IMG/VR virus record: IMGVR_UViG_3300033067_001661
Location: 128,001-192,000 of that record
From: a virus
Lineage: Duplodnaviria; Heunggongvirae; Uroviricota; Caudoviricetes
Direction: 5' to 3' (one strand)
Length of the DNA stretch: 64,000 nt
Part shown: in pieces, positions 11,501-53,830 of the stretch
Numbering within the stretch: the first letter of the stretch is position 1
Layout: each line of letters opens with the position of its first letter
Notes under the pieces: model-generated
The model's input: the letters and a program-made list of their open reading frames with translations, nothing else
Databases searched by the model: none
Told to the model about the DNA's origin: nothing
Translations under genes and position numbers: made by a program

Positions 11501-14500
11501 ATGGATTGCTTCCCGATGCCTCGTCAGGATCGCATTGAGGATCAGAAGCTTCAAAGACAGCGGCGTTACAATTTCCGCCGTCAGGCAAAGCCTGTCCTCT
11601 ATAAGTAACAACAACTCTAGCCATGAACGGTCTTGAACGACGAACCCAACAGCCATCAAACTCCGCAAACTTATCAGGATCAAAAAGAAGACCACCAGAA
11701 GATATAAACTCTTGATCGTCAAGAGGAACGGTTTGCTTACATAGTATCTTTACCATGTCGCCACCGCTAGATGATTGATTATCTGGCAATGGATCGTTTG
11801 TTGAGCCACCAGCAGACCTTCTTCTCTTAGACTTCTTTCGAGTACCAGAACTTGTTATGGTTCCAAAATTTGCCGCATTGTCGCCTATATTGACAAGCTC
11901 CATTGCAAATGGATTTCTCATCTCTATAGTTACAGGCAGCGATTCAAACTGGAAAACATTCTCAGAAGGATTATCTCTATTAGGAATTTCATACGAAACG
12001 GTTATCTGAGCAGAAAGCGAGTTTATAGCAGAAAGAGTATCAAGATCAGGCGTCATCCTAAATACGCCTCTTATAAAGCCGCTTCCAATAACCGTAGAAG
12101 AAAGTATATAGCAATCCTCTGCCTCTGGGGTCAAAGTAGTAGTATTGATAACTTCGCCAAATACATCTTCCGCAAGTTGCGCAGAACCAACAGTAGCCTT
12201 AGCAGTGAACTTAATCCTGCTTGCGTCAGAAATAGGAGCGCCATACTCGTCTGTTATCTCAGCGTATAAAGCGACCCGTTGATCAAACCATGCTTCAATT
12301 TCTTTCTGGAATTTAACAGGAGCATTCCAACCCAAACTTATTGCGTTCTCGTTAACAACTTCGTATCTAAACTGCTTAACTTCAAGAAGCGGAATTCCAT
12401 CTTCATCTGCGTCGTCAAGAGGAATCGTCGAAACGTAAACAGGAGCAGACAAGTTGCCATATCTATCTGCGGCAACAACTGCATAATAGTTTACAATCTC
12501 ATTTTCAAGATTTCTGTCAACAAACTCTACTTGGCTTGGATTGCCGCTAAAAACTAGCAACGCAGAAAAGCTAACGCCGTCGTCATTGTTTATGATCGGC
12601 GGACCCGTATCAGACCAATATACAAAAATCTGCTCAACAGTATCGTTATTAATTGCATTCCATGTCAAATATGTCTTATGATTGCCTGCCCTGATTTGAA
12701 CATTTTCAACAGGCTCAATAAAAGGCGTCGTTATAGCCTTGTTCCTATCGTCTCTACTCTTGAAGGCAGGAATCTTAATAGACAAAATTGGAGAATCAGA
12801 ATCTAAGCTAAAGTTCCCTATAGCATTTTGCGAATAGATACGGAAGTTGTAAATTCTATCATGAACATAATCAAAAGGAAGGGTTACAACAAAATCGCCC
12901 GGTCCTGAATCTGCCTCATAAACCAAATCTCCGTCTTCTTCATTTGAGGGCTTTTCTCCAAAACCCTCAAACACAAGAACAGGTTCGGCGGGGGTTCCAT
13001 TGCTACTTACGGGTGTTTGATAAGAAAATACACCAGCACCAGCCTCTGCTTTTCTTATGATACGGACTTTACCGCCTTCAAAGTTATAATCGTCAGGAAC
13101 AGAGTATCTAACAGCAACAATTCTATCTCCATTATCCAATACTTTTTCAGAAACTCTTTCATAACGAACTGCGGCAGACGCAATATAGTTTACAGATCGA
13201 ATAGTATCATGAACGCTTATCTCAGTAAGCTTACCAAAGAAATGAGAAGCTTTTCCGCCAAGGTATATATGCATTGGCTCTTGACTATAGTAACCCAAAG
13301 CTGTCAAAGAACCGCTACCAGCCTCAACGCCATTAACATAGAACGTAGCCGTAAGAGCCAGGAAATCTACAGTAACAGCAACATGGCTCCAAGCATTAGC
13401 TGTCAAAGCAATATTAGAAGAAGCGAATGTCAAGTCGTCAAAGGTAAAGAACAAGGTTCCGTCCGTATTTGTTCCAAACCTAAATGACATCTTATCTAGA
13501 GAAATAGTCTCTCTAGATATAATGCTTCTCTTGGCTGCAAAATTAAACGGGTAAGCCCAAGCCATGAAAGTGTATTTTGTCTTAATAAACTTACCGTCTT
13601 CGTCGTATCCTAAAAGCTTAGTATCAGTTCCGTTAAACCTAATACCGCTGATGCCGCTTGGAACATCATTATTATTGAGCCAAACTACATCTTCGCTTGA
13701 AGACAAAAGCACAGGATTATCGCTAAAGTCATACGCAAACGTTCCTGTTGATTCATTAAGATGCCAAAGTCCAATAGTATTAGAGTCTCTTTTAACACCT
13801 GAACCTGCAATTGTTCTGTAAGTAAAACCGCCAACTCCACGAGGATAGATCTTGACTCTAGGAGAAGCCTTCAAAAATCTGCCGTTACTGAAAATGCCAT
13901 TTGAATCAAAGGTATATGCGGCATAGTAATATTGTTCGTTTTCTTCAAGCTCGTCGTCAAATGCTCTTTCAACAAAACCTTCTGTAACTATATCTCCGTC
14001 AAGAGGGCCTGTAGGATAAGCTCCAAGCTTTCTAATGATTCGAACACCAGCATATCCGCTTTCTTGATCGGCGAAGAAAGCAGAAGCAACGTCTGCTATA
14101 TTGTTTGTATTTACCTGATCTGTCTCTACAACCGCAAAGAAATTCAGCTTGATAGGAGTAGACCCAAGGCTTAGAAGATTATACTTCACTTCGCCGGGAT
14201 AAGTCGCTTCAAGCCTATCAATCATTCGTCTTGTTATTTCGTGCCTTAGCCCGCCGCTATCGTTCCAGCTAAGAGAACCGCTTTGGTCCATAACAACAGA
14301 AACCAACCTATCAGGAAGATTCAAGGCAACCTTATTCGTAGTTGAATCAATATCAACTATTTTGGTTTGCAAAAATACAGGCTCTAAGTCGTCTATATCA
14401 AACTTCTGAACAACCTTTGTCGCAATAGCCGACGCCGGAACAATCAGTTTACAAGCATTCTCATTTATAGAATCTCTAAACGAGTAAAATCTAATAGCAT

Positions 14501-47400: not shown

Positions 47401-48498
47401 TGCTGTGTGATAGAACTTTGGTGGCTTAAGAATAGAACCATCCCTAACAGGATTACCATTGTACTTCAAAGAACTTGGCAAATTAGCAATAAAAACTCTA
47501 CTAGAAAGAGTTGGAAAAGCATTCTCGTCGCTCTCAAAAGTTTCTTGAGAACTAAAAACAACAAGACCAGATCCATTAGACAATGATGTTGAAGAAGTTG
47601 AATTGTAAATCCTACATACAGAATCATTATCTACAGGATAAACCTCTTTCAAATCGGAACAAAATCCTATCTTTGAATTGTAAAACGCTGATTCGTCGTC
47701 AAATATGGATATTGAACCAACAACGGCTCCGTCAACGCAAAAGTCATCAAGTTTTTCAAGCTTCAAACCCTGACCAGGTATGGGGTCAAGAATTGCGCAT
47801 TCAGGAGCCTCTGGGTCATTAGTTGCTTGAAGAGCTTTCATCTCTTCGGGAACAAAGTGAATAAAAGAACCAGAGTCATACGTTTCAGCATGCTTATCAG
47901 CAGACTTTGAATACCTAATTGGGAACTTTTGCAACGTTCCCGAAGAAGCAGAAGATCCAGTTAGAACGTCTATCGCTCTAAACGAAATCGAACCCTCTCC
48001 GCTATAGTTCGATTTAACGATAAACTTCTTGTCATTTACGATAACATGAAGACTTGAGTTTGGCTGAGTATGAACCTTGATTGTTGCTTTCTCTTGCAAA
48101 CCAATAAAAGGCGGATACACAGAAATTCTGTCTCCAGTGCTTTTTACTTTTGAACTTTGAACCTGAAAAGCGAACGCTGCAATGTCAGACAGCCTCCAAG
48201 TACCCGACTCTGATTTTTCTTCTACGTTTGCATAAACAGAGATAACACTTGCAGCATCGGCCTCAGAAAGAGCAAGGTCCATTCTTCCTGTAACTTCTGA
48301 TACAGAACCAACAATAATCTTGTCACCAACAACGCTTCCACTAGACAATGTATTAGGCTTCAATACTCTACCAAACGTGGCGTTTTCAAATCCTATTCGA
48401 TAGGTCTTTGACGGAACGAGACCGGAAACAACAAAAGCAATAGCTTTTGTTTCTGCTATTGGAGCGCTGAAAGGTTGTAACTTAAGTTTAGCGGACAC
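41320..48498 (-). CDS. giant multidomain virion protein (2392 aa): discontinuous BNR-type propeller, DUF642/choice-of-anchor-C CBM, FY-x-D repeats, Gly-rich tail
   Basis: HIVWES/HIAWQS/IAWQD/VIWQD blades; NGSFEE...GWTV...YGPQIDAV; GTG start overlapping the GT gene. Confidence 0.85.
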   Translation of the reverse strand: MSAKLKLQPFSAPIAETKAIAFVVSGLVPSKTYRIGFENATFGRVLKPNTLSSGSVVGDKIIVGSVSEVTGRMDLALSEADAASVISVYANVEEKSESGTWRLSDIAAFAFQVQSSKVKSTGDRISVYPPFIGLQEKATIKVHTQPNSSLHVIVNDKKFIVKSNYSGEGSISFRAIDVLTGSSASSGTLQKFPIRYSKSADKHAETYDSGSFIHFVPEEMKALQATNDPEAPECAILDPIPGQGLKLEKLDDFCVDGAVVGSISIFDDESAFYNSKIGFCSDLKEVYPVDNDSVCRIYNSTSSTSLSNGSGLVVFSSQETFESDENAFPTLSSRVFIANLPSSLKYNGNPVRDGSILKPPKFYHTAIPSGVAVDQKYGITFRVDDGAVFEIQYTTILGTLSELITSFVELINNDLRCRLYSIKAVDQGDFIEIKSDTRFTIRSDVYTGSGTLEVQLKSNKTLELLVDSSAIKDSGNTVVFLTPKVGYQSHEISSRDMVNNLIRIEVPDGFNNDIGPNIYESIYCQKFVIVDSTKELPENDLIEVNPLPYVYDIFNREVSCAYPVIASRKIEDTGEEIAYVVCQAPVDGIYQLFYYSFRVGQSVENNQWKQLTQLGENKNAKIKCDSVGNLHIVWESDRIGPTQLYYSVLGPSAKPVNNQILMSILDKNVLSGADVDLYSITEPTVKLQSPFSRMIANDGKVSVYDRSYVAIEGDCSKDTAMAYYSLSKDEFGNDFPANFAQLSYQVSFDLWMPYLSTGVLTDKEIAAKFAEWKSGFTPAGNYKYSKNKNLYTIDSYEAFYENFIPVCGAFKLDGSSIEINSGGAVVDDVPHRQSLVYTSYDERMSLANPANVKHWMLAIIPEKIRFKAKNTETFAQFCERNELELSDCEGFTNEIEYELNTGRYKLALLLATCENESTGQVAKKTYLIKRLLDGYVDFSTAEKVKISVHYAKAGSDHINGVMKRDREAFANEYRYYGDIVVSLNNKIICASSFLADFSDQIRKFDIALGIPPGSGFSINESTPYKGNMYESGNVKQIFANLSISPHTLVLDPSYIDFSEFERDVAQMVVPDVVKNILSNGSFEETVMPYQDSLPLYNGYESVTGWTVSYGALYRRTPTVIPNTEIGFSASDRTSWMELTGLSSPTVQRGFITNSFATTVGKKYWVFFDLANQPESYVQGSSVTKKVKATLGTTSKTFSTTINATGPSVMNWKTVSMSFVATSTTTTIKLENASNQFNDGRDVQYGPQIDAVMVIAEEDLNDELDSFTTAESLLVDQPEFDLNYSLNVTNNFTQIPITLSNDYQNKSADIFIDKIDKIHIAWQSNRDDYWNVYYGGSRLRNNPFRFDTKISDSKSNSVNPSVCVDGVGRRLIAWQDARSGKYQIYAAMSKVPDQMLVDRCKQDEVDEFLYKWNSSIDPYYDADVLPISQLNCAVEFTFLATETSLFHFNISFYEDKDYSILYKRISSKESINGWRVDNKQISYNGLSAIDETQYLVSYTPSNEDNITGRVLYAVVEYEINSNIIDVVASQNIAILRPYSGLNLKTGRLEKSNEVRALLEFEDESPVEVAAQSLASLNTSGYSGVSFAGSLTELPGVEVGQKIRSVLLHFDPEGSEGSVTAKVKFNSPILALFISGSKLGSTNSVFGHPGVTYPGGGGAGVENNDTITVSADRKTLDLFLYTNPVIDQIRVILLDNTSVVGENQFVYYCPSKQSSRCDVSCSFSNNSDVAEDIHFRVSFYADPEKTNLVMSSFTKTDTLNWFSSSSSFPSSGVSVEPGQSISVIYSPEILPFEFYESQTKTTLTPSSVVRQPLLCGIPYRVVIESYRNGSFFVESEYELLCPCEKTASDFWKTDYDSQNWLSSGQGFEDFRISLADGNCLFPKISVTENDIFYVIWQDFRYARLLDSQSPSSPDYFMALYDAENDNFQCSGQGGYDRRLTYFSETEKYLYDASVFIDPFQNINLTLHDGKKVYNQSCSLGCKFTAKNKDLILPCMFTDETDPSFFVVGGAPDRTVDQYQKVRISPGSVAYSTYLDVNTPIPVITDCFVELDIIGVPGTYAYRLRNETDEDWSEWIPIGPDLPEQTQKDTAATPAERDFFRAYFVERNRFVAPWVASSGNGVKRICCEVLTFFGKTESFCVDFMALYDSFEYKIDLFFDEDFSQPVPKFKSYPVVSKSKTESVIDNSNLSSISDDITEVSTIYARIEFRDKQKIALLERLKSVERLGLSSSILMNVYQQGINDQTGIVVEKIRDGVYRGTFSVFADDGIINIDGIGIITLDIPGQCGSSDSITRSISLTTSGTLDQSVSIFNNFTVFREKYTASDVKGSFGNPDYYKTRKFGIGESSDWFGGGPGPINNNIGYEGSGSPDGGGSGGNGSGGNGGGSGGSGGLQGG

Positions 48499-49585
48499 GG
48501 TAAATATTCTCCATTATCTTTCCAAAAGCATCGGCAGCAACCCTATATGTAAAGTTGTTATGAACATAGTCATATGCCCTATCTGCTTTTCCCATAGTCT
48601 CGTCTTGATTTGAATAAACCCTTCTCATAGCGTCTTGAACTGATTGAATCGTTATTCGGGGCCACTTCTTATTGAAAAACTGAACGATGTTATCCATATT
48701 AGAATGAAGCATGAAACCCGAAGGTTCGATAAGGGTGCATCTGTCCTCTGAAGCATAGTCCTGACATCCTGAAAAATTTGTTATAATGATTGGCACTTTG
48801 ATAGCCATACATTGCAATCCAGGAAGGCCAAATCCTTCGCCTAAAGTTGGCATAACTAAACAGTTGGCTGACTTATAGAAGGACGGTAAATAAGAGTCGT
48901 CGAATATTCTTCTTTCAAACAAAATGGGAGCGAATTCCTTCTTTAAGCCAAGAGTTGTCTTAATTTTTGCAACTTCTTGCGTTGCAAGCTGAGTCTTGTC
49001 TGTTTTTATGAGAAGCTGAACATTGTCAGAAGACGAAAACTCTCTACAAAAAGCCTCGATAAGCTCCTGCCATCCTTTTCTCTTTTTCCATGTCCCAACA
49101 AACAAGAAAGTGTACTTATCATGTTTGTCAAGAGGTATTACATCTTTATGCCAGTTTTCACTATTGAAAGTATGAGGTAGGTAAAACATAGGCTTGTAAA
49201 TACCGGCATGAGCAAATATCTTGTAATTAAACTGCGACGGACAAGCAATGGCGTCAAGTCTATTAAGAAGTTCAACCCACTTTTCTGGAGGCTCAAACGT
49301 CTCAAAAGTTGCAAAACCAATAGACTTATAAGTTCTTGGTATCCTCATTTGCATAGGAGGAATACAGTGATAAACTTGCGTTGCTCTAGGATTTGGCAAC
49401 TTTCTAAACAAGGGATCAAGTATAGACAATGACTTTTTACTGAACGATTGCTTTGAAAGGCTACCATTCAGAGGAACAACCCTAATATCATACTGCTTAG
49501 TTTCAAGGAGAGCAGAAACAACGTCAAACGCTGCTTGCCCATATCCTGTTTCGTTGAAAAAACCTATCCACTCAATTGGAATCAT
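48488..49585 (-). CDS. glycosyltransferase family 4 (GT-B fold)
   Basis: TGYG, FETFE, RKGW, PTLGEGFGLPGLQCMA. Start moved to 49585 because GGAGG lies 7 nt upstream. Confidence 0.9.
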   Translation of the reverse strand: MIPIEWIGFFNETGYGQAAFDVVSALLETKQYDIRVVPLNGSLSKQSFSKKSLSILDPLFRKLPNPRATQVYHCIPPMQMRIPRTYKSIGFATFETFEPPEKWVELLNRLDAIACPSQFNYKIFAHAGIYKPMFYLPHTFNSENWHKDVIPLDKHDKYTFLFVGTWKKRKGWQELIEAFCREFSSSDNVQLLIKTDKTQLATQEVAKIKTTLGLKKEFAPILFERRIFDDSYLPSFYKSANCLVMPTLGEGFGLPGLQCMAIKVPIIITNFSGCQDYASEDRCTLIEPSGFMLHSNMDNIVQFFNKKWPRITIQSVQDAMRRVYSNQDETMGKADRAYDYVHNNFTYRVAADAFGKIMENIYRVR

Positions 49586-50198
49586 AAACATCCCTCCATC
49601 TCTCTCCGACCTGTTTAGAAAATGAAGTTATGGTTTCTGGTTTTATTTTCTTTTTATCTGCAAGTCTATGACAATTTGGACATAAATAACTTAAGTTGTC
49701 ATGAGAGTTGGCATTTGGTATTTTTCTACCATATATATGATGAAGATCGCAGATGTCTTCAGCCCATCCACATTGAGAACATCCTATTTTCAAATTAACC
49801 AAAACTCTTTTTCTGGGTATAGAATTAAGATTCCAAATAGAATCAACTCCGGTAAATCTTTCTTTTGCTTTTATTTTAGTCCAGTTTGAGTTTTTTCTAT
49901 CATTAGCATAATACTTACCTGAACATAGTTTACTACAAAACTTGCGCCTCTTTTCATATCCATTATCAAACTCATTACAACAAAATAAACATTTTGAAAT
50001 CTTACATCCAGGTTTCTTTGGCATACTACTACCGCATTTGCGCGAGCAGCACTTTCTTAAATCTTTGCTAGTAAATTCTTTTTTACAAAAAGCGCATATT
50101 CTTGAATGCGCTATGTTCCAACATTTTTTGCTACAGTATTTTGAGCCAGAAGCTTTACTTTCAAATACAGATTTACATACACAACAAACAACATTCAT
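49572..50198 (-). mobile_element. free-standing HNH homing-type endonuclease with three N-terminal Cys4 zinc-finger repeats
   Basis: CSQCG...DLHHI...NSHDNLSYLCPNCH; C..C...F....K.CS..C three times; AT-rich (27-30% GC in the two 60-nt lines counted). Confidence 0.85.
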
Positions 50199-50200
50199 AA

Positions 50201-50256
50201 AATTCTCCGATATCAGTTATTCCGTGATACTGGATACACAGATAATCGGAAGAATT
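50201..50256 (-). promoter_or_regulatory. RNA hairpin sequestering the HNH gene ribosome-binding site
   Basis: mRNA AAUUCU-U-CCGAU-U-AUC ... GAU-AUCGG-AGAAUU; the 3' arm contains the GGAG SD (50205-50208) 6 nt before ATG 50198. Confidence 0.7.
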
Positions 50257-50291
50257 CCTCTTATTTCTTCAATGTACTCAATTGGGGTCAT
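50217..50291 (-). CDS. 24-aa leader ORF (MTPIEYIEEIRGILPIICVSSITE), probable remnant of the GT4 N-terminus
   Basis: ATGA overlap with the stop of 50288..53830; first 22 nt match the GT4 start at 17/22 positions. Confidence 0.5.
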   Translation of the reverse strand: MTPIEYIEEIRGILPIICVSSITE

Positions 50292-53200
50292 GTGCTAACA
50301 ATAACATCGCCTGTAAACTTGGCCCTTACATCGTTTACTTTGCTGAAAAGGCCTCCGCTTACCTGCCAAACAATGTTACCGTCAGAATCAACCTTGATTA
50401 CCCTACCTGCGTTTCCAATAAACGATGTTTCTGCGATAACAACATTAGTATTGTCGTCCAAAACAGCGTCCGAAGGGTAAGCATTATCAGAAGCAAAATA
50501 CTCAAAACTGATAGACTTATCTCTTCTGCTCAGAATAATTGTCTTACCCCTATAGTTTGCCAACTTTCTTATAGCTTGCTGTTCATAGGTTTCAACACCA
50601 TCGCCGCCATCTGGAGCAGGTAAAGGGTCTGACTCTTGAACCAGACCACTCACAAGAATTTTTTCAGAGTCTATCTCATAGACCGACCCCAAAGTAAAAT
50701 CAGAGAATGTCAACGCATTATAGCTGAATATGACCTCTTCATTATTGAAGTTGATTTCAACCAAAGACGGAGCCTCTTCTGGGGTATCCGTTCCGCTACC
50801 GTCGTCGGCTGCAATAATGTTCAATATAAGCGTATTGGTAGTTGTTGCTATTGTCTCGCCTGTATCTGTCTGTATATAAACAGCAGTAAAGACCAACTGC
50901 CATGTTCTTATTTGAGTATCATTGGGAGAGTTTAGACTAACTGTTGCAACATTTCCTGGTAAAGGAGCCTCAAAGCTAACAATATCTTGTATTGCAGCAG
51001 GAACATTTCTTTCCCAACGAAGTTCAAAACCATCACCAGGAGGGTCAACCTCGACCGTAAACGTCGTACTATCTCCAACCTTCAATGTAAGATTTGTAGT
51101 CGTACCAGTGTCAATCGCTTCCTCTTCTACCTTGGAATTACAAATCATCCAAGTTCCACTACTTGTTACATTCGCAAAGACAGGTCTCTTAACATCGTTC
51201 ATGTAAACGAAATCGCCTATAAAAACCAAAAGGCCTCTATTCGTAATTAGTCGTCTTGCGCTATCAGGATAGACAAATGGAGTTGGCAAGAAACCCGAGA
51301 GAAGGTCTACATACACATCAAAATTAGGGTCTTGAAGCTGCTCTACCTTATCGTTTGTAATACTTATTTCAAGCAACTTAGGACTCTTACCAGAGTCAAG
51401 AATCTCGTCTTGCTCACCAAAAAGAATACTTGCAGAACCTATCCAGAGCCTTATTTTGGTTATATCAACCTTAGTAGGATCAATGTCTTGACTAAACGCA
51501 ATGGTCAAAACACCCTTTCTTTGATTGTAAACAGCAGTAAGAGGATAGAACGAAGACGAGTCGCTAACATTATGCCCTCCAACACCTCTAACAAATTCTC
51601 CAGCAGGAGTTACCTCTATGACTCTATCATTCTTCGTATCTGCAATAATGAAGTTTCTAGTCTCAAGCCTATAAACAGAAAATGGATTGTTGAATCCTGG
51701 CGAAAAATCTGGCGAAGCTATATCAATCGCTTGCTGCGGAGAGAGTAACGTTCTAAACAAAAGACCTCTGAAGCCATAAACAGCCGTTCCTTCAGGATCG
51801 TTTTCATTAACACCGTTTTGATAAATGTAGTAAATATCGCCTACTGAAATGGGTTCTTGCAAAACAATCTTTGAGTAAAATGGATTGAACTCGTCAATGG
51901 TTTGCTTTTGATTTGTATAAGAACCTCTATCCCAATCCTGAGCAGTAGATATAGTAAAACCAGTTATATTGGAGCTAACAACAAGCTGTAACTCAAGACT
52001 CTGCAACGTAGGCGTAAAAGTTCTATCTGGATTAGAAACCAAAACAACTTCTATTTCTGCGTCAGTTCCATAAAGAGAAAATACGTCTCCCGATCTTAGA
52101 ACAGGAGTATATATCGCTCTATTGAGCAAAGACGGAGAGTTCGCAACCCTAACTCTAACCCTTACGTCACAATCCTCTGGAATAAGAGCGTCATAGTTGA
52201 TAGCGCTAAATACAACAGGAACTCCGCTAGAGTACCTAAACCTAATCAATCCGCTAGGAGGGAACAAGCTCTGATTGCGAAGGAATATATTGTCAACCCA
52301 GAAGACATGCTTTGTAACAGTATCGTCGGTATAAAAGACAACTTCTCTAATGTCATTCTTGTCTTCTTCCGAAATGTCAAAAACTCGCCTCTCAAAACCA
52401 TTGAATACGGGGTCAACATTATCTGTTATCTCGTCAGGACCAAGAACAAGGTAAGACTGCGACTGCTTCTTTGTATCTCCTTCGCCATTGACAAAGTACA
52501 TATAGACAGCGCCATGAGATATAGACAAGCTCTTTACATCAAGGATAAGTTCGTCATACAAACTCCAATCTCTATTCTGCGTTAGAACTCTCTTGTAAAT
52601 AATCCTAGAGTCTCTTTCTGTTTCAAACTTGCCGCTATAAAAGCCTTGAGTTCGTAAAGCAGAAGAGTCTTCCGAAGTTACGCCTATCTTGTCTGTCGTT
52701 ATCTCAACTTGCGTTGTAAAGCCAGGAATAGGTACGCCAGCCCTAGGAACTTGCTCAAAGTCTTCAACTTGGGTTGAACTGCTACCGCCTCTTGTTAGAG
52801 TAACAGTATCTCTTGTAATTGTTACATTCTGTCTGTCAGTTGCCGTGAAGAAAGCAGGATTAGAAGCCCAGTAAATAGAAATAATCGAACCGTCTTGAAC
52901 TGGCTTTCCAGATATACAATGGGTATCAAGACTTACATTCGCTGTAGTGGCGTCAAAGTCAATACCTGCGTCTGGCGTAATACCAGGATAACAAACATGA
53001 AGATTTGGGAAATCAACAAGATCGCTAAGGTTCAGATTCATGCTATTCGCAAGATAGTGCTGAGCCGTAATAAGCTTCATTGTATTAACAGAGCCAATCT
53101 CGCCAAGAAGCTGTCTATTGCCAGAACTTATCAATCTTGTAAAAGAATCGAGAGCGGCATGCGTCAAAAGGCCATTGTTCTCTAAGTCATTATGGTCAAG

Positions 53201-53830
53201 CTGTGGCACTCTTTCTGGAGAGAGTCTTCCGCTGTTGACTTTTGAAGCGTCAAAGTCTTCAAGCCTAGCGCCTGGAAGCTGATTACGAGTTTCGGTCTGC
53301 AAATCAATCTTGCTTGGAGTTCCTCTATGCTTATGCTTTGCAACCTCGTCTTTAATGAACTCAAGAAAACTTATTTCTTCTCTAAAGTTCAGATCAATAC
53401 TTGTTATGCCTGTTTCGCCAGTTGTAACCCTTGCAAGTCTAATGGCGTTTCTAGAAGGAAGGCTTCTACTCCATACAAAGTCAACTCTTCTTGAACGAAC
53501 TGTTCCGCTTGTAAGTATGGCATAGATATCAAATGTTTCGCCAGGAGGCAGATCCAAAACTTCTCCTGTGGATTCGGTTTGAACAGCAAGCGAAGAAATA
53601 ATACCTAAGCCAGGTGTTATATCAACAGCGATGGTATTGCTACCTATGTTGTCTCTTTCCGTAATGGTCCAACCGCTTATGACTCCGTTACCAAAGACAG
53701 AGTACAAACCATAAAGCTGTTTATCAATGACAAGAAAACGGTCAATCTCTTTTTGGACATTGATACCGTCGCCAAGGTCGTCGCCATAGGTAAAGTAAGC
53801 TAAACCGTAAAATGGAGTTGAACCTGCCAT
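50288..53830 (-). CDS. tail-fibre/appendage-like protein (1180 aa): conserved N-terminal domain, CBM-like domain, NHL/arylsulfotransferase-like propeller segments
   Basis: N-terminus paralogous to the 1556-aa protein; RDWSLYDELILDVKS CBM11-like; IIADTKNDRVIEV and GRVIKVDSDGNIVWQ. Confidence 0.8.
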   Translation of the reverse strand: MAGSTPFYGLAYFTYGDDLGDGINVQKEIDRFLVIDKQLYGLYSVFGNGVISGWTITERDNIGSNTIAVDITPGLGIISSLAVQTESTGEVLDLPPGETFDIYAILTSGTVRSRRVDFVWSRSLPSRNAIRLARVTTGETGITSIDLNFREEISFLEFIKDEVAKHKHRGTPSKIDLQTETRNQLPGARLEDFDASKVNSGRLSPERVPQLDHNDLENNGLLTHAALDSFTRLISSGNRQLLGEIGSVNTMKLITAQHYLANSMNLNLSDLVDFPNLHVCYPGITPDAGIDFDATTANVSLDTHCISGKPVQDGSIISIYWASNPAFFTATDRQNVTITRDTVTLTRGGSSSTQVEDFEQVPRAGVPIPGFTTQVEITTDKIGVTSEDSSALRTQGFYSGKFETERDSRIIYKRVLTQNRDWSLYDELILDVKSLSISHGAVYMYFVNGEGDTKKQSQSYLVLGPDEITDNVDPVFNGFERRVFDISEEDKNDIREVVFYTDDTVTKHVFWVDNIFLRNQSLFPPSGLIRFRYSSGVPVVFSAINYDALIPEDCDVRVRVRVANSPSLLNRAIYTPVLRSGDVFSLYGTDAEIEVVLVSNPDRTFTPTLQSLELQLVVSSNITGFTISTAQDWDRGSYTNQKQTIDEFNPFYSKIVLQEPISVGDIYYIYQNGVNENDPEGTAVYGFRGLLFRTLLSPQQAIDIASPDFSPGFNNPFSVYRLETRNFIIADTKNDRVIEVTPAGEFVRGVGGHNVSDSSSFYPLTAVYNQRKGVLTIAFSQDIDPTKVDITKIRLWIGSASILFGEQDEILDSGKSPKLLEISITNDKVEQLQDPNFDVYVDLLSGFLPTPFVYPDSARRLITNRGLLVFIGDFVYMNDVKRPVFANVTSSGTWMICNSKVEEEAIDTGTTTNLTLKVGDSTTFTVEVDPPGDGFELRWERNVPAAIQDIVSFEAPLPGNVATVSLNSPNDTQIRTWQLVFTAVYIQTDTGETIATTTNTLILNIIAADDGSGTDTPEEAPSLVEINFNNEEVIFSYNALTFSDFTLGSVYEIDSEKILVSGLVQESDPLPAPDGGDGVETYEQQAIRKLANYRGKTIILSRRDKSISFEYFASDNAYPSDAVLDDNTNVVIAETSFIGNAGRVIKVDSDGNIVWQVSGGLFSKVNDVRAKFTGDVIVST

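Follow-up and report, generated by a model that had tools for sequence, protein, structure and literature searches.

Hairpins that sequester the ribosome-binding site (RBS) have been described for the phage homing endonuclease genes I-TevI, I-TevII, I-TevIII, segB and the mobE gene of Aeromonas phage Aeh1, and in these systems late promoters relieve the block (PMC2988022). Translational coupling has been proposed for T4 mobE, which has a UAAUGA junction with the gene before it, and scanning re-initiation has been proposed for segC, segF, mobA and mobC (PMC2988022). The gene considered here encodes an HNH endonuclease and lies on a 64,000-nucleotide (nt) stretch of viral DNA, referred to below as the window, which spans bases 128001-192000 of the IMG/VR record IMGVR_UViG_3300033067_001661, a 333.6-kb viral contig judged to be 66% complete. 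A first-pass annotation of the window proposed that a short leader open reading frame (ORF) and a hairpin over the Shine-Dalgarno sequence (SD) of the endonuclease gene form a translational switch, and drew on the RBS-occluding hairpins of T4-type homing endonucleases as precedent. That precedent is well documented for the hairpin genes named above.

Short leader ORFs that promote the translation of a downstream gene are known from integrons and plasmids. The integron ORF-11 and ORF-18 are reported to be chimeric short ORFs, with a start codon in attI1 and a stop codon in the inserted cassette, that drive cassette translation by termination-reinitiation; the ORF-18 stop codon is placed in the 5' untranslated region of the cassette, 45 bp before the gene, and the short ORFs are said to relieve attC stem-loops (PMC8876359, citing Hanau-Bercot et al.). 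For the plasmid gene pairs tap-repA of R1, repR-repA of IncI2 and repY-repZ of IncB/IncI1, the downstream gene is described as needing translation of a leader peptide, which in the case of IncI2 repR is 19 amino acids (aa) long (PMC8053102, citing Blomberg et al. 1992). The authors of the first-pass annotation knew of no described case of the switch that they proposed. This stands for the combination of a hairpin with a relic leader in a homing endonuclease, of which no description turned up in the literature searched; it does not stand for the parts, as coupling, chimeric ORFs and leader peptides each have precedents.

The locus is a combination of individually known parts in the homing endonuclease of an unrelated jumbo phage, and it is a plausible relay for nuclease translation on the basis of its sequence. 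A 706-bp cassette with the HNH gene occupies the start of a glycosyltransferase (GT) gene, and the displaced GT start codon now begins a 24-codon leader ORF that crosses one arm of the hairpin. The genes are packed on the minus strand without gaps in the order 1180-aa ORF, 24-codon ORF, 18-nt spacer, HNH ORF, GT4 gene and 2392-aa ORF. All coordinates of the locus refer to the minus strand of the window, and its features are as follows.

53830..50288, minus strand: upstream ORF of 1180 aa from the ORF list, a putative fibre or structural protein; its TGA at 50290-50288 overlaps the leader ATG as ATGA
50291..50217, minus strand: 24-codon leader ORF, with ATG at 50291-50289 and TAA at 50219-50217, in frame with the HNH ORF
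50291..50272, minus strand: 20-nt relic of the GT start, equal to the GT start of the relative L002; upstream copy of a direct repeat that flanks the cassette (partner at 49585-49566)
50271..49566, minus strand: 706-bp HNH cassette made up of the leader/hairpin module, the HNH ORF, an SD serving the GT gene and a GT start copy of donor type; a single indel relative to L002
50258-50245, minus strand: 5' arm of the hairpin by folding, leader codons 12-16
50211-50199, minus strand: 3' arm of the hairpin by folding, which holds the SD GGAG (50208-50205); the HNH ATG begins 1 nt past its end
50259-50217, minus strand: 43-nt block of perfect identity to the relative L003, which takes in the 5' arm, the apical region of the hairpin and the stop codon of the leader
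50198..49572, minus strand: HNH endonuclease ORF of 208 aa (phrog_1271, Pfam HNH, IscB-like core)
49597-49593, minus strand: GGAGG, read from the sequence as the SD for the displaced GT gene; within the 3' end of the HNH ORF, 7 nt upstream of the ATG at 49585
49585..48488, minus strand: GT4-family glycosyltransferase gene (Pfam Glyco_trans_1_4, phrog_2170), the first ~24 nt of which are donor-type

The ancestry of the leader start codon is apparent from L002 (IMG/VR 3300020576_005843), which aligns with 8.7 kb of the window at ~97% identity, interrupted by one 706-bp gap that corresponds to the cassette. In L002, the same ATGA junction leads straight into the GT gene (MTPIEYIAFF...). Since L002 is without the cassette, the leader ATG is the ancestral start of the glycosyltransferase. 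Three more distant relatives, L005, L006 and L007, are also without the insert, and the ATGA overlap serves as the GT start in the empty sites of L002, L006 and L007. No SD was found ahead of the GT start in any of the relatives examined (L002, L005, L006 and L007), which suggests that GT initiation was ancestrally by coupling. The 264 nt ahead of the leader start and the 20 nt that follow it are the same in the window and in L002, and thus the initiation determinants of the leader start are intact.

The part of the leader that is a scar of the insertion is confined to its first 20 nt (50291-50272), or ~6.7 codons, which are identical to the GT start of L002. The insert closes with another copy of the GT start, of donor type, at 49585-49566 (MIPIEWIG compared to MTPIEYIA in L002), followed by two more donor-type bases at 49563 and 49562 and then by 150 nt identical to L002. 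A ribosome crossing into the cassette would reach a stop codon within 10 nt in either of two frames, and the frame in use is the only open one of the three. The 706-bp insert holds the leader stop, the SD and the two hairpin arms alike, so that the module travels with the mobile element and is not improvised from host sequence. The proposal that the switch reuses an insertion scar therefore stands for the start codon and the first 20 nt, while the arms, stop and SD belong to the cassette.

At the other end of the cassette, the GT start that is homologous to that of the relatives is the second ATG (49585) and not the first ATG (49591) chosen by the ORF listing. The HNH stop codon (49574-49572) sits 11 nt inside the GT gene. 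With a GGAGG positioned 7 nt upstream of 49585, the cassette exchanges the lost ATGA coupling for a new SD on the host gene, and a GGAG is also kept before the GT start in L003.

Comparison with further relatives presents a signature of mobility. The same HNH gene is found at the same site in L003, L004 and L015, and its protein is 88% identical to that of the window, whereas the GT protein is only 72% identical. At the DNA level, the upstream gene is 71-74% identical to that of L003, with a rise to 86% in its last 250 nt and ~87% over the cassette and a fall to ~63% at about nt 25 of the GT gene; among L005-L007, no comparable jump in identity was observed near the insertion site. The last ~250 nt of the 1180-aa gene (50292-50540) have 0 differences from L002 where ~7 would be expected, and this stretch looks like a co-conversion or recombination tract beside the homing site. 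L002, which has no HNH gene, shares the 250-nt tract, so that transfer may have gone in either direction. Among contigs assembled from wastewater runs, one with the HNH gene is present in X1 and X10 and others without exactly these 706 bp are present in X11 and X16; in a more divergent strain, at ~89% identity, 697 bp are skipped at this position (run contigs compared with 49400-50700). Judged from these alignments, the pattern is the one expected for intronless homing with co-conversion by a free-standing homing endonuclease gene. Filled and empty alleles are present side by side in the wastewater samples.

The first-pass annotation placed an imperfect inverted repeat over the HNH SD at 50201-50256. 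The repeat is confirmed and is slightly wider (50258-50199), with a stem of 8 + 5 pairs around one bulged U and a weaker upper extension. The leader TAA and the HNH ATG (50198) are separated by an 18-nt in-frame spacer that contains the GGAG at 50208-50205; the leader stop is 4-5 nt ahead of the 3' arm and the HNH AUG begins 1 nt past the stem. The earlier description of a 24-codon ORF that begins at the relic GT start, traverses the 5' arm and terminates shortly ahead of the SD arm is likewise borne out by the ATGA junction of L002 and by the sequence itself. As to whether the hairpin might be unstable, folding of the 67-nt hairpin alone gave -19.6 kcal/mol with a z score of -3.2, and 2 of 200 shuffled sequences were as good. 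The hairpin is retained in larger contexts, being kept in the centroid structure of a 116-nt segment and in the minimum free energy structure of a 210-nt segment, where the SD is paired at 0.989. A search against Rfam gave no match at E <= 1.

Masking of the SD was compared over 270 crude gene starts of the genome. The HNH start ranks 3-4 of the 270 by SD pairing probability (0.99), and opening of its SD requires a net 9-11 kcal/mol compared to a genome median of ~3 (rank 10-15). The SD mask is therefore real and above chance, within the top 5% or so, yet it is not singular within the genome. Words resembling an SD are found before 60% of gene starts and at 22% of control positions, and SD-dependent initiation is plausible in this phage.

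An alternative reading of the SD hairpin as an intrinsic terminator was rejected, as a terminator scan called none there. The only terminator-like hairpin is at 50112-50091, where it is accompanied by a T-run inside the HNH ORF and recalls the internal terminator reported for T4 mobE. This second hairpin folds at -11.0 in the window and has a different, weaker fold in L003; being degraded in L003, it is probably non-functional.

Variation within the module was assessed between the window and the L003 type, as the copies in L003, L004 and L015 are mutually identical. Scans of IMG/VR, metagenomes and GTDB returned other versions of the cassette only of the L003/L004/L015 type, and run contigs aligned to the locus yielded no new variant with the HNH gene. 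A further HNH variant that is 79% identical (P0002) was encountered in Logan only. One match to a degenerate pattern, L023, was discarded as a chance match in a metagenome-assembled genome of Methanobacterium.

The L003 leader is 21 codons in length owing to a 9-nt in-frame indel, and keeps the same frame, the same TAA, the same last 13 codons and the 18-nt spacing. The spacer itself contains six changes. In the 3' arm, a C->U change converts a G-C pair to G.U, an extra G provides a partner for the U that is bulged in the window, and a terminal U is lost; all three are compatible with pairing, and the resulting stem is a continuous 13 bp with a predicted energy of -18.2 kcal/mol. The 43-nt block is the second-longest identical run in the 3.3 kb aligned between L003 and the window. 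Since synonymous sites of the HNH gene are ~0.75 identical, or ~25% diverged, a perfect run of 43 nt looks constrained. A perfect run of 57 nt is also present inside the HNH ORF, in the region of its motif, and from this it is clear that conservation is patchy and that the 43-nt block is not to be over-read.

The mechanism considered most likely, if tentatively so, is that the hairpin damps HNH translation and that ribosomes re-starting at the relic ATG open it and re-initiate. On the polycistronic message, the stem-loop would keep free 30S subunits off the HNH start. Ribosomes that end the 1180-aa gene would re-start at the overlapping ATGA, the old start of the GT gene, and translation of the leader through the 5' arm would melt the stem. 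Termination would follow at the UAA, 4-5 nt before the 3' arm. Judging from footprint sizes, a ribosome on the UAA would cover the first nt of the 3' arm and leave the 5' arm behind it; with the arms so separated, the stem could not close. The SD, 8 nt past the stop, and the AUG, 18 nt past it, might then, while the stem is still open, capture the ribosome that has just terminated or a fresh 30S subunit. An 18-nt distance from stop to AUG with an SD in between is a geometry suited to re-initiation, and each step of the relay has a documented precedent. HNH output would be a small, fixed fraction of the translation of the upstream gene and would remain at a low level, and the displaced GT gene would obtain a new SD from the 3' end of the HNH gene. 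Leader translation, repression by the hairpin and re-initiation are all steps that we infer from this arrangement.

In the first-pass annotation, coupling was to an upstream structural gene and thereby to late translation. The position of the upstream gene is as described. Because the 1180-aa protein is without a Pfam or PHROG family, its designation as structural and late comes from its neighbours only.

A number of observations weigh against the relay. Contigs from RNA libraries cover the region and show neither transcription, strand nor ends. Retention of the leader frame may come free, as the relic is the left homology arm at each homing event and a single indel would be in frame by chance in one case out of three. 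No SD precedes the leader start, and the flux of ribosomes through the leader may be small as a result. Ribosomes that pause on the stop codon of the leader could cover the SD rather than expose it. The 116-nt context is unremarkable overall (z = -0.51), 10-15 other gene starts of the genome are equally occluded so that the hairpin is not unique, and the distant HNH relatives L010-L014, L016 and L017 have no SD hairpin. Of random 67-nt windows from the genome, which fold at a mean of -10.7 kcal/mol, 2.9% are at least as stable as the -19.6 kcal/mol of the hairpin. By the cost of opening the full -20..+12 footprint, the HNH start comes only at rank 55-66 of the 270, since the AUG and the first codons are unstructured. 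Between the two variants (n=2), no pair has changed on both sides and there are no compensatory changes.

The last three of these points also speak for the absence of any dedicated function, in which a moderately stable structure would have arisen by chance, the leader would be a neutral relic, and conservation would come from recent shared ancestry or patchy gene conversion. The 57-nt run inside the HNH ORF fits with this as well, as it shows that such runs exist beyond the leader too, and the probability that an upstream ORF (uORF) runs 17 codons stop-free into new sequence is estimated as ~0.3 at this base composition. Such a reading is unlikely given that it is specifically the SD that is paired, at a level that few gene starts of the genome reach, that the six spacer changes in L003 leave the stem energy nearly unaltered, and that a perfect block of 43 nt has an estimated probability of 0.75^43 or ~4e-6, or of ~0.003 at the overall identity of 87%. 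A different possibility, and a somewhat better one while still on the doubtful side, is control by the hairpin only as in the T4 family, where it is documented for I-TevI/II/III, segB and Aeh1 mobE (PMC2988022). Expression would then come from a shorter transcript, made by a promoter or by processing in or after the 5' arm, or would be permanently low, and the leader would be a by-product of insertion. The 43-nt block exceeds the needs of the stem and could hold a promoter or an operator, and other SD-occluding hairpins in the genome lie without an obvious uORF. Against this, no sigma-70-like promoter was found in the leader and no motif of the block recurs elsewhere in the genome, and a T4-like late promoter inside the hairpin is accordingly disfavoured. 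No over-represented upstream motif maps to the block, with the caveat that the promoter consensus of the phage itself may differ from those scanned; k-mer enrichment over 119 upstream regions identified only words of the tRNA T-loop, words resembling an SD and a weak TAGAGTAT motif, all of which lie outside the block. Moreover, a ribosome that begins at the intact relic start must unwind the 5' arm, and some coupling would be hard to avoid.

The leader may instead act negatively, with ribosomes that terminate at the UAA occluding the SD 8 nt downstream and adding to repression. Occlusion of the RBS by uORF ribosomes is listed beside coupling as a bacterial outcome in the account given by PMC13285730, and known ribosome sizes would put an SD at this distance within the footprint of the terminating ribosome. 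This is highly improbable, as the strong stem already closes the SD without leader translation and occlusion would add little, while an 18-nt distance from stop to start with an intervening SD is typical of re-initiation under the scanning model (PMC2988022). The relay by re-initiation can also be extended, in a form that is itself rather doubtful, to a portable module. In this extension, the cassette would bring with it an open frame at its entry, a stem that masks the SD and a stop codon; upon homing to a site just past a coupled start, these would turn that start into a leader that drives and meters the nuclease, and the 43-nt block may add an operator or promoter. As the 20-nt relic would be both the homology arm and the translational entry, it would be regenerated in frame in every new host.

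The HNH protein matches phrog_1271, an HNH endonuclease family, with E = 2e-15. The Pfam HNH match of the ORF is under the gathering cut-off (E = 8e-4, 19.9 bits) and in the genome scan it is above the cut-off (23.5 bits). The protein aligns with the HNH domains of IscB in the PDB and is composed of three N-terminal Cys-rich repeats followed by a nuclease core of the form CxxC..HH..N..CxxCH. The repeats occupy residues 1-100 as tandem modules of ~30 aa each (CxxC ... K-x-C-S-x-K-C) and are presumably zinc-ribbon DNA-binding repeats. Distant HNH relatives share the Cys-rich repeats yet not the hairpin. The glycosyltransferase was identified by Pfam Glyco_trans_1_4 (E = 5e-15) and phrog_2170 (E = 3.5e-34).

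In the genome scan with Pfam HNH, five further matches were found (G000:C1 39523-39822, 290329-290976, 13094-13522, 116-676 and 95705-96295), two of which exceed the Pfam cut-off while three are weak (E = 0.0016-0.028). In one of the weak matches, 13094-13522, the SD is covered by a small hairpin of the form CCTC..GAGG. Of the 14 gene starts at which the SD is most expensive to open, several resemble nuclease or endonuclease genes, as judged by eye only. The nuclease-like SD-masked starts belong to G000:C1 299212-299508, 60909-61553, 12157-12579, 15480-15929 and 303647-304657, all outside the window, and the types recognized by eye include a RuvC-like gene, a Cys-rich endonuclease-like gene and a gene with an HNH-like motif. 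While the genes were typed by eye only, they hint that the phage may damp its nucleases more generally by hairpins that mask the SD.

Contigs related to the phage record reach 494-506 kb, from which the phage is an uncultured jumbo phage of roughly 500 kb. It recurs across wastewater and activated-sludge runs. A blastn search of cultured phages identified no DNA relative, and a tblastn search against cultured phages gave only HNH genes of ~30% identity in crAss-like and Lak phages. The T4-type setting that the first-pass annotation drew on thus finds no support in these searches for this phage, which has no DNA match to cultured phages.

If the relay is true, a selfish nuclease has entered a tight operon and taken the coupling signal of the gene that it interrupts for its own low-level expression, while the host gene has been compensated with a new SD. 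The result would be a compact "good citizen" homing endonuclease outside of the T4 family, and it would join two literatures, one on hairpin control of phage homing endonucleases and the other on chimeric-uORF coupling in integrons and plasmids. As the empty and filled alleles locate the homing site and both ends of the cassette with single-nucleotide precision, the system would be easy to probe with reporters.

In comparison with the hairpins of the T4 family, the locus is alike in that a homing endonuclease on a polycistronic phage message has its SD, near the AUG, in the 3' arm of a stem-loop (PMC2988022), and the presumed purpose is low or delayed synthesis of the nuclease. It differs in how the block would be lifted, since T4 late transcripts lack the 5' arm whereas here no such promoter was identified and a short ORF crosses the 5' arm, and also in its host, an unrelated jumbo phage of roughly 500 kb. 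With the coupled mobE, seg and mob genes of T4, the locus would share endonuclease translation that is slaved to termination of an upstream ORF and a low relative yield. The T4 endonuclease ORF overlaps the upstream gene; in contrast, a 24-codon relay ORF is interposed here and an SD-occluding hairpin is present.

The likeness to ORF-11 and ORF-18 of integrons is in the construction of the leader, as the short ORF starts in the recipient and receives its stop codon from the inserted cassette. ORF-11 is described as having its own SD and as mainly serving cassettes without a translation initiation region (PMC8876359), whereas the short ORF here is without an SD and uses the ATGA overlap, and the hairpin masks an otherwise good SD of the cassette gene. 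The element is a homing endonuclease and not an integron cassette. As for the tap-repA type, a short leader ORF likewise lies just upstream of the gene that would depend on its translation, and the R1 tap leader is 24 aa in length. There, an antisense RNA or a protein gates the leader, and no such regulator is evident here. Finally, the leader of the HNH gene is a relic of a host gene, unlike the dedicated leader genes of the plasmids.

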